From: Nanobdellota archaeon
Lineage (GTDB): Archaea; Nanobdellota; Nanobdellia; Nanobdellales; Nanobdellaceae
NCBI GenBank assembly: GCA_020697515.1
Contig: JAIXNB010000009.1
Span: forward strand, 1-13,321
Length of the DNA: 13,321 nt
Reading direction: 5' to 3'
The notes under the pieces are model-generated. The model worked only from the letters and a program-made list of their open reading frames with translations. It was not told where the DNA came from and did not search any database. Shown here piece by piece: positions 1 to 8,653 of this stretch. Both the position numbers and the translations under genes were made by a program. How positions within the stretch are numbered: position 1 is the first letter of the stretch; every line of letters starts with the position of its first letter.

Positions 1-63
1 GTCTAGCGGTAGGACGCCGGCCTGGCTCGCCGGAGGTCCCGGGTTCGAATCCCGGCGGGTCCA
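1..63 (+). tRNA. tRNA-Ala: tRNA-Ala (anticodon GGC), 5' end truncated by the window edge (window begins at tRNA position 10)
   Basis: D stem GTCT/GGAC with loop AGCGGTA. Anticodon stem CCGGC/GCCGG with loop CTGGCTC. Variable loop AGGTC. T arm CCGGG-TTCGAAT-CCCGG. Acceptor 3' strand CGGGTCC has T at position 70 (Ala G3:U70 signature), followed by discriminator A. No CCA is encoded. Position 37 is a pyrimidine, which is atypical. Confidence 0.8.
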
Positions 64-931: not shown

Positions 932-1049
932 AATATACAACGCTGTTATTCGAAAATATTAAAGTTTGGTTAATCATCTTGGATCAACGATAACAAGCAT
1001 TTTTATAGATCCTTATCCTAAAAAACTACAGCACCACTTGTATATAGGA

Positions 1050-1060
1050 TTTTAAATTTT
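1050..1060 (+). promoter_or_regulatory. TATA-like box for the H/ACA-containing transcript
   Basis: TTTAAATTTT is centred about 26 nt upstream of 1081, the first base of the GC-rich hairpin. This is the typical archaeal TATA-to-TSS spacing. Confidence 0.5.
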
Positions 1061-1080
1061 AATTGGCTATTTCATTCTAT

Positions 1081-1134
1081 CCCCGCCGGCCATGCACTGG
1101 GGAGTCATGAACCAGTTCCTCCAGGCGGGGAACA
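1081..1134 (+). ncRNA. H/ACA box guide sRNA hairpin (pseudouridylation guide), predicted target in 16S rRNA
   Basis: Lower stem CCCCGCC (1081-1087) pairs with GGCGGGG (1124-1130). Upper stem ACTGG (1096-1100) pairs with CCAGT (1112-1116). The K-loop-type cap GGAGTCATGAA has the form N-GA-N5-GA-N. ACA at 1132-1134 lies 15 nt after the upper stem. Pocket strands are GGCCATG and CCTCC. The region is a GC-rich island in an AT-rich spacer. Confidence 0.7.
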
Positions 1135-1136
1135 AT

Positions 1137-1211
1137 GGGATGAAGATGGTGGCATGATCCTGAGATGTGAGGAAGGAGGTGAGTGCAGATGATGAGATAC
1201 GGCTACGCAGA
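1137..1211 (+). ncRNA. Non-canonical C/D-box-like guide RNA unit(s) with alternating C-like and D-like boxes; structure unresolved
   Basis: Layout: GGGATGA (1137-1143) -16 nt- CTGA (1160-1163) -3 nt- GTGAGGA (1167-1173) -12 nt- CAGA (1186-1189) -0 nt- TGATGA (1190-1195) -12 nt- CAGA (1208-1211). The region is purine- and GC-rich and is contiguous with the H/ACA hairpin. Confidence 0.4.
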
Positions 1212-1219
1212 CCTACAAA

Positions 1220-1224
1220 TTTTT
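1220..1224 (+). terminator. Oligo-T (T5) archaeal termination signal after the GC-rich RNA region
   Basis: TTTTT lies immediately after ACCTACAAA, at the point where GC content drops back to background. Confidence 0.4.
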
Positions 1225-1293: not shown

Positions 1294-1341
1294 GTGATGA
1301 CCTGGTTACGGTCTGAGAATGATGAATCCTGCCACTTCTGA
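1294..1341 (+). ncRNA. Canonical archaeal C/D box sRNA (2'-O-methylation guide)
   Basis: C box GTGATGA (1294-1300), 12-nt guide CCTGGTTACGGT, D' box CTGA (1313-1316), 2-nt linker, C' box ATGATGA (1319-1325), 12-nt guide ATCCTGCCACTT, D box CTGA (1338-1341). All four boxes are consensus and both spacers are exactly 12 nt. Confidence 0.85.
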
Positions 1342-2979: not shown

Positions 2980-3051
2980 AGCCGCCGCCGGGATTTGAAC
3001 CCGGGACCTCCGCCTTACCAGGGCGGCGCTCTACCGCTGAGCTACGGCGGC
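2980..3051 (-). tRNA. tRNA-Thr: tRNA-Thr (anticodon GGU)
   Basis: The reverse complement folds as GCCGCCG-TA-GCTC-AGCGGTA-GAGC-G-CCGCC-CTGGTAA-GGCGG-AGGTC-CCGGG-TTCAAAT-CCCGG-CGGCGGC-T. This is a perfect cloverleaf with anticodon GGT and discriminator U. No CCA and no intron. Confidence 0.95.
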
Positions 3052-8435: not shown

Positions 8436-8511
8436 GTCTAACGTAAGAGTTGATTTAAACAGTAGGACGTTTATTCACATACTACTAAAAACTCACGACA
8501 GACAGATCTAA

Positions 8512-8561
8512 TCCGTGCATCGTTGTGTCATCATAAATCAGGCCGTCGCGGACATCTTCAT
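8512..8561 (-). ncRNA. Candidate C/D box sRNA with non-canonical terminal boxes
   Basis: Minus strand: C ATGAAGA (8561-8555), 13-nt guide TGTCCGCGACGGC, D' CTGA (8541-8538), linker TTT, C' ATGATGA (8534-8528), 12-nt guide CACAACGATGCA, D CGGA (8515-8512). A TATA-like TATTAAATATT lies about 30 nt upstream and T5 (8485-8481) lies downstream. The guides are GC-rich in an AT-rich spacer. Confidence 0.45.
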
Positions 8562-8653
8562 TATTAGGCAAACATTATCTATGTTGTGTTAATATTTAAT
8601 AATAAATAAAAAATATATCGATCCTTACAAGCTTTTATTAGATAACCCCAATA

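Follow-up and report, generated by a model that had tools for sequence, protein, structure and literature searches.

A predicted composite H/ACA and box C/D guide RNA with three C/D guide modules in a Nanopusillus-like nanoarchaeon

Our study concerns a 13,321-nucleotide (nt) stretch of DNA from a Nanobdellota archaeon (contig JAIXNB010000009.1, assembly GCA_020697515.1; the whole stretch is called the window here), in which positions 1137-1224 carry a chain of alternating C-like and D-like boxes. We predict that this segment is the box C/D portion of one gene, about 143 nt long (1080 to about 1222), for a composite guide RNA, and from sequence comparison with orthologous loci we place the probability of this reading at roughly 0.7. 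The unit runs from a putative box A promoter through an H/ACA hairpin and its ACA to the C/D part, which forms the 3' two-thirds, and ends in a run of five T residues (T5). The C/D part itself reads C (AUGAAGA), guide 1, D' (CUGA), the linker GAU, C' (GUGAGGA), guide 2, D* (CAGA), C'' (UGAUGA), guide 3 and D (CAGA). The host is an AT-rich hyperthermophilic Nanopusillus-like nanoarchaeon. Two elements of this design are already known, namely the bridging C/D small RNA (sRNA) of the sR13 type and the H/ACA-C/D composite of the Pab21 type; what is new is the conserved third guide module.

Architecture of the predicted composite gene

The box chain was proposed in a first-pass annotation of the window, which listed GGGATGA (1137-1143), CTGA (1160-1163), GTGAGGA (1167-1173), CAGA (1186-1189), TGATGA (1190-1195) and CAGA (1208-1211), with gaps of 16, 3, 12, 0 and 12 nt, followed by ACA (1215-1217) and T5 (1220-1224). 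All of these lie at those positions. The use of GGGATGA with its 16-nt spacer as the C box did not survive comparison with other loci: the overlapping ATGAAGA (1140-1146), with a 13-nt spacer, is invariant in eight orthologs, and we take it as the first C box; UGAAGA and CAGA are routine partners in Nanoarchaeum equitans. Our ortholog set (n = 8) comprises the window and loci L015, L016, L017, L019, L024 (with which L025 is grouped), L026 and L027; L015 came from a metagenome pattern scan for the guide to Gm1508, and L016, L017, L019, L024/L025, L026 and L027 from synteny with a histone gene. Each of the eight loci has, in order, an A/T-rich box A-like element, the same H/ACA hairpin, ACA, ATGAAGA, a 13-nt guide to A1408, CTGA, a linker of 2-3 nt, a C' box, a guide and CAGA. 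The parts of the composite gene in the window are listed below; box A, the trailing ACA and the T5 run are read from the sequence.

1051..1056 (+): box A (TATA-like) TTTAAA, putative promoter, about 24 nt 5' of the hairpin base
1080..1131 (+): H/ACA guide hairpin, with covariation in eight orthologs and a conserved pocket
1080-1087/1124-1131 and 1096-1100/1112-1116 (+): lower and upper stems of the hairpin, with covariation
1088-1095 and 1117-1123 (+): pocket strands, conserved
1101-1111 (+): kink-loop (K-loop) of the hairpin, GGA...UGAA, conserved
1132..1134 (+): ACA box, 15 nt past the pocket top, invariant in 8/8 orthologs
1140..1146 (+): C box ATGAAGA, the nanoarchaeal variant (U5 to A), invariant in 8/8 orthologs
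1147..1159 (+): guide 1, TGGTGGCATGATC, 13 nt, predicted target 16S A1408 in helix 44 (h44), N+5
1160..1163 (+): D' box CTGA, invariant in 8/8 orthologs
1167..1173 (+): C' box GTGAGGA, with a degenerate fifth position
1174..1185 (+): guide 2, AGGAGGTGAGTG, complementary to the anti-Shine-Dalgarno (anti-SD) sequence UCACCUCCU (16S 1532-1540), N+5 = C1533
1186..1189 (+): internal D-type box CAGA (D*), with a 0-nt linker to the next C-type box
1190..1195 (+): third C-type box TGATGA (C''), with A1189 reading ATGATGA, a 1-nt overlap with D*
1196..1207 (+): guide 3, GATACGGCTACG, complementary to 16S GUAGCCGUA (predicted at 1505-1513) in the 5' strand of helix 45 (h45), N+5 = G1508
1208..1211 (+): terminal D box CAGA, the last box in 8/8 orthologs
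1215..1217 (+): trailing ACA
1220..1224 (+): T5 run, likely an archaeal terminator

The clustering of these boxes goes far beyond chance. The unit TGANGA-N11-13-CWGA occurs seven times in the 13.3-kb window against 0.55 expected from dinucleotide-preserving shuffles, adjacent pairs of units occur three times against none expected, and the triple chain occurs once against none in 1000 such shuffles. The G+C content is 0.48-0.52 across 1051-1200 and about 0.30 around it; G+C islands of this kind are typical for structured RNA genes of AT-rich hyperthermophiles. A/T-rich elements resembling TTTAAA or TTATAAA stand at an equal distance from the hairpin in L015, L017, L019, L024, L026 and L027, and the motif and spacing in the window are those of the sRNA and tRNA promoters of N. 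equitans, where TTTAAA lies 26 nt upstream of the start (PMC3491384). T-runs follow the last box in L015 and L016 as well, and T-stretch terminators are known for N. equitans sRNAs. Several of the two-guide orthologs have no clear T-run; in L017, L019, L024, L026 and L027 a stretch that matches, in reverse complement, the 3' end of a convergent YbaK/tRNA_edit gene (…TTTGGAAC…) follows the last D box within a few nucleotides, so that the 3' end of the sRNA overlaps or abuts a protein gene there.

Several features of a canonical C/D sRNA are present. The guide spacers are 13, 12 and 12 nt long in the window, those of the orthologs ranging from 11 to 13 nt, close to the usual 12 nt; the D'/C' linker, GAU here, has 2-3 nt in all orthologs, as expected of a short-linker K-loop; and AUGAAGA (1140-1146) and CAGA (1208-1211) retain the GA dinucleotides needed for tandem sheared G.A pairs. 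The window departs from the two-guide C-D'-C'-D plan, which is found in six orthologous loci, in having three C-type boxes, three D-type boxes and three spacers. The statement that the C/D part lacks a terminal stem was right only in rough terms: no such stem is conserved, and in the window alone the CCUA that follows the terminal D box (1212-1215) is able to pair with UGGG (1136-1139).

The unusual boxes had been explained as a co-variation, GTGAGGA and CAGA together replacing the U.U pair of the kink-turn (k-turn) by G.A. This explanation does not hold, on three counts. CAGA is present in 8/8 orthologs and GTGAGGA in the window alone, its position being ATGATGA in L015, L016, L017, L024 and L027, GTGATGA in L019 and ATGAAGA in L026. 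C' pairs with D', not with the D box behind its own guide. And CAGA is a routine partner of xUGAAGA in N. equitans, in at least 12 box pairs: among the 26 RNA-seq-verified C/D sRNAs in the supplementary table of Randau 2012, xUGAAGA/CAGA, with A.A in place of the usual U.U pair, serves as C/D in sRNA8, 9, 14, 16, 17, 19, 21 and 23 and as C'/D' in sRNA1, 5, 7 and 18. On this pairing rule we assign the terminal CAGA as the partner of the ATGAAGA C box.

Predicted guides to the 3' region of 16S rRNA

By the fifth-nucleotide rule (N+5), we infer that guides 1, 2 and 3 point to 16S A1408, C1533 and G1508, respectively. These predicted targets lie in the decoding site of h44, in the anti-SD tail and in h45, so that all three apparently fall in the 3' region of 16S rRNA. 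The references for these assignments were the N. equitans 16S 3' end, taken from a hybridisation oligonucleotide in PMC5389701, and the 16S of Haloarcula marismortui (L028). Against both references, guides 2 and 3 each form nine perfect pairs spanning N+5, which bears out the 9-nt complements AGGAGGTGA (1174-1182) and TACGGCTAC (1198-1206) that the first-pass annotation had proposed for the archaeal 16S terminus.

Guide 1 aligns with the D' guide of N. equitans sR13 (AGGTGGCTTGACT, Am1408), and its target is assigned by homology; GG(T/C)NTGA is kept in all orthologs and variation is confined to where h44 itself varies. Its target site is predicted to read UCAUGCCACC at 16S 1406-1415. Guide 2 aligns with the D guide of sR13 (GAGGAGGTGATA, Am1534) with a shift of 1 nt, and its best match in the entire H. 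marismortui rRNA operon is the anti-SD site; the guide is identical in L016, and L015 keeps the core AGGTGAGT (positions 2-9). Guide 3 matches the D' guide of N. equitans sR18 (CATACGGCTACC, Gm1508), and between the window and L015 it differs only at two non-pairing end positions. Scans for a nanoarchaeal 16S gave little: two scans of viral contigs for the predicted h44 and 1494-1513 sequences yielded only chance matches in coding DNA or none, and a 16S 3'-end query against a plasmid collection returned bacterial matches only, an archaeal-specific query leading to the H. marismortui operon.

Relation to known nanoarchaeal C/D sRNAs

The methylations directed by the counterparts of these guides have been mapped in N. 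equitans by matrix-assisted laser desorption/ionisation mass spectrometry, primer extension and RiboMeth-seq, Am1408 and Am1534 being guided by sR13 and Gm1508 by sR18 (Seistrup et al., PMC5389701). The match of spacers 2 and 3 to guides whose methylation sites were located by experiment lends weight to the earlier suggestion that a composite RNA with several guides acts on the 3' region of 16S. The likeness to sR13 extends to the layout. N. equitans sR13 reads AUGAUGU-AGGTGGCTTGACT-CTGA-TTA-GTGATGA-GAGGAGGTGATA-CTGA and its counterpart in the window ATGAAGA-TGGTGGCATGATC-CTGA-GAT-GTGAGGA-AGGAGGTGAGTG-CAGA, with guides 1 and 2 in the same order, a D' guide GGTGGCNTGA (A1408) and a D guide GGAGGTGA (anti-SD), the nanoarchaeal box dialect, and a proposed bridging of h44 and the 3' tail in a lineage without RsmA. 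The combination of an A1408 D' guide with an h45 or anti-SD guide in one sRNA is found in 8/8 orthologs. sR13 differs in that it stands alone, with no H/ACA hairpin within 40 nt upstream, and has two guides only; its D guide directs Am1534 rather than C1533 (the 1-nt shift) and pairs fully to the D box, and its boxes include AUGAUGU and CUGA.

The third module, TGATGA-GATACGGCTACG-CAGA, matches the first half of N. equitans sR18 (ATGATGA-CATACGGCTACC-CAGA), guide 3 (ATACGGCTAC and CAGA) being the sR18 D' guide for Gm1508. Whereas sR18 couples this guide to a 23S guide, the window adds it as a third module to an A1408 and anti-SD unit. Seistrup et al. 2017 propose a further combination for Nanopusillus acidilobi (PMC5389701), an h44/h45 sRNA guiding A1408 (D') and G1508 (D) (their Fig. 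S4), which is the arrangement seen in L017, L019, L024, L026 and L027. In Pyrobaculum, sRNA genes exchange guides as whole modules through recombination in or close to the boxes (Lui et al. 2018; PMC6009581); the composite and transposed C/D sRNAs described there stay two-guide, whereas the window has gained a module to give three in series. Within the literature library that was searched, no description of a three-guide C/D sRNA was found, and a Nanopusillus sRNA is discussed only in PMC5389701. When representative genome contigs, a set to which the window's species does not belong, were scanned for the Gm1508-guide pattern, N. equitans sR18 and one chance match were the only results.

The fused H/ACA hairpin

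The fusion of the C/D part to an H/ACA hairpin, noted in the first-pass annotation, is supported by the presence of the same covarying hairpin in all eight loci. Across these orthologs 99% of the stem cells are paired, both sides have changed at 6/13 pairs, and none of 500 shuffles scores as high as the real alignment. Conservation extends to the pocket, CCATGCA and TTCCTCC, and to the K-loop GGA...UGA, and the ACA stands at 15 nt from the pocket top, within the roughly 14-16 nt seen in archaeal H/ACA guides that combine a pocket with an apical K-loop. A covariance model of the segment from the H/ACA hairpin to D' finds exactly one copy at each of the 8/8 loci; the stretches of N. equitans and N. 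acidilobi that it was run on gave no copy.

The closest known parallel is Pab21/Pf1/snoR9 (RF00065) of Pyrococcus, in which an H/ACA guide occupies the 5' end of a transcript with a C/D sRNA, both forms being found in vivo. The window shares with Pab21 a single K-loop hairpin, an ACA that leads directly into a C/D sRNA and a similar K-loop (GGGGA..UGAACC). A scan of the window at Rfam gathering thresholds returned two tRNAs only, and below threshold generic C/D families and snoR9; the match to RF00065 covers 1079-1146 and model positions 1-71 of 128. We rejected membership in this family, since the score of 25 bits falls below the gathering threshold of 90, the model is matched in part and the pocket differs. 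Pab21 targets 16S U891 in the GGAAUUGGCGGGGG region, and the window pocket is CCAUGCA/UUCCUCC; the pseudouridine target is therefore a different one. The Pyrococcus C/D part has two guides and that of the window three.

The single published H/ACA sRNA of N. equitans is a double-hairpin RNA. It lies at L007 3348-3571 (+) (AE017199), about 2 kb from sR18, the Gm1508 guide, and scores 42 bits against Rfam HgcG/Pab40 (gathering threshold 77); it is a different RNA, HgcG/Pab40-like.

Orthologous loci and the probable origin of the anti-SD module

The eight loci present the guides to A1408, the anti-SD and G1508 in three combinations:

A1408 + G1508: L017, L024/L025, L019 (Nanoclepta minutus), L026 and L027; five loci
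A1408 + anti-SD: one locus, L016 (nearest relative; histone 92% identical)
A1408 + anti-SD + G1508: the window and L015, both with a zero-nt CAGA/TGATGA junction

The three guide-like spacers that had been noted as an anomaly in the window thus recur, with the zero-nt junction, in the divergent L015. The junction CAGATGATGA is identical in the two, C'' is conserved in L015 and is equivalent to the C' of the two-guide A1408 + G1508 orthologs, and the CAGA of L016 that corresponds to D* is its terminal D box, followed by a T-run. Between the window and L015 the linkers, the loop of the K-loop and the flanks have been free to vary, and the boxes and the guide positions that pair with rRNA are retained. 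Contigs L001-L005 have an intergenic region 100% identical to that of the window and thus carry no covariation information.

A histone tree, rough as it is, groups L015 with L016. This grouping fits a single origin of the anti-SD module, which was probably gained once in the L015/L016 clade, L016 later losing its last module, a step for which a deletion from one CAGA box to the other would suffice. Beside the histone genes of L018 and of L020-L023 (N. acidilobi among the latter), the other loci anchored on that gene, neither a regular expression nor the covariance model found a composite RNA. The contig end of L016 (2897-2962) has, just 5' of the H/ACA hairpin, an inverted copy of the C/D part (…TGCACTCACCTCCTTCATCATCTATCAGATTCACGCCAACATCTTCATTC), probably an artefact of fold-back assembly, though it could be a real inverted duplication.

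Proposed assembly of a three-module C/D RNA

The archaeal C/D small ribonucleoprotein (sRNP) is regarded as two-fold symmetric, with two k-turn motifs, a Nop5 dimer that acts as a ruler and two guides. The box A promoter would drive one transcript, in which an H/ACA pseudouridylation guide with its ACA passes straight into a C/D methylation guide, and fibrillarin would be directed by the three guides to 16S A1408, C1533 and G1508. The objection that no K-loop can form at the CAGA/TGATGA junction, raised when the chain was first described, is valid: D* and C'' are contiguous, and so no K-loop lies between them. Most likely, we infer, the RNA adopts one of two canonical assemblies that exclude each other and have C, guide 1 and D' in common. 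In assembly A, the C/D* k-turn and the D'/C' K-loop would present guides 1 and 2 and leave the rest as a 3' tail, as in L016 and N. equitans sR13. In assembly B, the C/D k-turn and a D'/C'' pair closed over a 26-nt loop would present guides 1 and 3, the combination of the five A1408 + G1508 orthologs and of N. acidilobi. Both assemblies agree, in L015, with the box-pair rule of nanoarchaea (UGAAGA/CAGA and UGAUGA/CUGA). A nested RNP with three k-turns may be an alternative assembly.

As to function, nanoarchaeal lineages are reported to lack RsmA/Dim1, and Seistrup et al. propose that sRNA pairing in the h44/h45/3'-tail region replaces the RsmA/Dim1 checkpoint in nanoarchaea (PMC5389701). Following them, we suggest that the composite RNA would both modify this region and chaperone it. 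More tentatively, and with distinctly less confidence than in the gene itself, we consider that it could be a working or switchable three-site guide: one RNP, or two interconverting assemblies with C and D' in common, would hold the h44 decoding strand, the 5' strand of h45 and the anti-SD tail of nascent 16S, and their ordered release would constitute an RNA-based late checkpoint of the small subunit in place of RsmA/Dim1, with the H/ACA hairpin adding a pseudouridine in the same 3' major/minor domain.

Several observations weigh against our main reading of the gene as a composite RNA with three C/D guides. A K-loop with a 26-nt loop, as assembly B requires, has no citable precedent, and the three-module form is seen in two independent sequences only. 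The guide targets are predicted from the sequences of N. equitans and H. marismortui and from guide homology, not from host rRNA. Guide 2 pairs at positions 4-12 only, positions 1-3 (GUG) mismatching GGA 1529-1531, and the window, L016 and L015 all keep its G3 and U2 despite the lack of pairing there with the anti-SD; conserved positions that do not pair hint that the true target could be a different one. Such a target, for which an alternative site would read ACUCACCU, might exist, or the module might be decaying; L015 guide 2 has only six contiguous anti-SD pairs, and the C' box of the window is degenerate (GUGAGGA). For the H/ACA hairpin, the candidate target in 16S h34 (GGAGG-UG-CAUGGCC, E. 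coli U1052) is an imperfect and tentative match.

The C/D part could also be a transitional or partly dead form, in which only two guides work and the third is an unused, tolerated remnant of module exchange between A1408 + anti-SD and A1408 + G1508 sRNAs; the middle module, because its C' box is degenerate, would be the likelier remnant. Such a history would accord with the zero-nt D*/C'' junction that cannot form a K-loop, with the degenerate C' and the shortened pairing of L015 guide 2, with the two modules of the nearest relative, L016, and with the documented exchange of guide modules among Pyrobaculum sRNA genes (PMC6009581). We nevertheless regard it as unlikely, for both three-module lineages retain all six boxes and their 12-13-nt spacers while linkers, loop and flanks have been randomised, the H/ACA stems have meanwhile gained compensatory changes, positions 2-9 of guide 2 do not differ among the window, L016 and L015, and changes in guide 3 are limited to non-pairing positions.

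The three modules might instead belong to a polycistronic precursor rather than one RNP, cut into a two-guide sR13-like sRNA (1140-1189) and a half sRNA with a single guide (1190-1211), the H/ACA hairpin being attached or not. Pab21/snoR9 does occur in vivo with and without its C/D part, and there are known cases of dicistronic transcripts and of two or three C/D sRNA genes lying in a cluster. What makes such processing improbable here is the geometry: there is no spacer between D* and C'', indeed a 1-nt overlap of boxes if A1189 is counted; a lone C-12 nt-D unit without C'/D' has no known stable RNP form in vivo; and the sole 3' sequence that could pair with the 5' flank (CCUA, in the window) sits behind the last D box and not behind D*.

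We also considered that 1190 marks a protein-coding start, with GGAGGTGA as a Shine-Dalgarno sequence, ATG 7 nt further on and an open reading frame of 18 codons (MMRYGYADLQIFKQKYYT). The Shine-Dalgarno-like sequence, its spacing and ATG-ATG are all there, and L015 has ATGATG at the same place; the resemblance arises because the guide is complementary to the anti-SD. The frame runs into T5, has 10 codons and another end in L015 and is absent from L016, which has no ATG, and conservation lies on the boxes and rRNA-pairing positions rather than on codons; a small open reading frame, not being conserved, was therefore rejected as very improbable.

Least credible of all is a second H/ACA hairpin ending at ACA 1215-1217, suggested by the ACA and T-run at the 3' end, by GA-rich motifs that could be k-turns and by the double-hairpin H/ACA sRNA of N. 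equitans, which is, as noted, a different RNA (HgcG/Pab40-like, L007): no stable fold was found and the trailing ACA is missing in L015 and L016, and without conservation of that ACA there is no second H/ACA unit. Thermodynamic folding of 1134-1225 (minimum free energy -12.9 kcal/mol, z = +1.06) and of 1078-1225 (z = +0.06) gave no significant structure; a weak fold is to be expected of k-turn RNAs, because they depend on protein.

Neighbouring genes and other RNA features

Two minus-strand genes flank the composite gene, one for a XerA-like integrase (104-940) and one for an archaeal histone (1404-1631). NCBI lists an identical histone under 'Candidatus Nanopusillus sp.', and identical contigs are present in several hydrothermal-vent metagenomes and two metagenome-assembled genomes.

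Other C/D sRNA candidates were seen nearby. At 1294-1341 (+), 70 nt downstream of the composite gene, stands a separate C/D sRNA of canonical form, GTGATGA-CCTGGTTACGGT-CTGA-GA-ATGATGA-ATCCTGCCACTT-CTGA. The best match of its D' guide is to 16S GUCGUAACAAGG (E. coli 1494-1505, N+5 = U1498), adjoining the h45 target of guide 3, and its second guide has an 8-9-nt match in the 23S of H. marismortui; this sRNA is absent from L015. The intergenic gap 8436-8653 holds a C/D-like sRNA at about 8510-8565 (-), ATGAAGA-TGTCCGCGACGGC-CTGA-TTT-ATGATGA-CACAACGATGCA, after which CGGA stands as an unusual D box. In L020, at about 1000-1069 (-), an unrelated canonical C/D sRNA, ATGATGA-CACCACCCGTGA-CTGA-AG-ATGATGA-TATGGGCATTTG-CTGA, lies upstream of a MetAP/histone block. 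The window also has two very G+C-rich tRNA genes (0.72-0.73, in a genome of 30% G+C): a 5'-truncated tRNA at its edge, 1-63 (+), and tRNA-Thr(GGU) at 2980-3051 (-).

Implications

The H/ACA-C/D composite transcript, known in Pyrococcus, is now extended to the Nanopusillus/Nanoclepta lineage, and its ortholog series presents the h44/h45/anti-SD guide set as reshuffled modules, in the forms A1408 + G1508, A1408 + anti-SD and all three together. The three predicted guides converge on h44, h45 and the anti-SD tail, the very region of the proposal by Seistrup et al. for a substitute of RsmA/Dim1 (PMC5389701). A conserved three-module RNA with no linker between its second D-type and third C-type box puts the two-fold-symmetric rule for the C/D sRNP to the test and offers a natural substrate on which to study how boxes choose their partners. 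If it does act as a three-site guide, it would represent a C/D RNP architecture beyond the two-guide, two-fold-symmetric rule.

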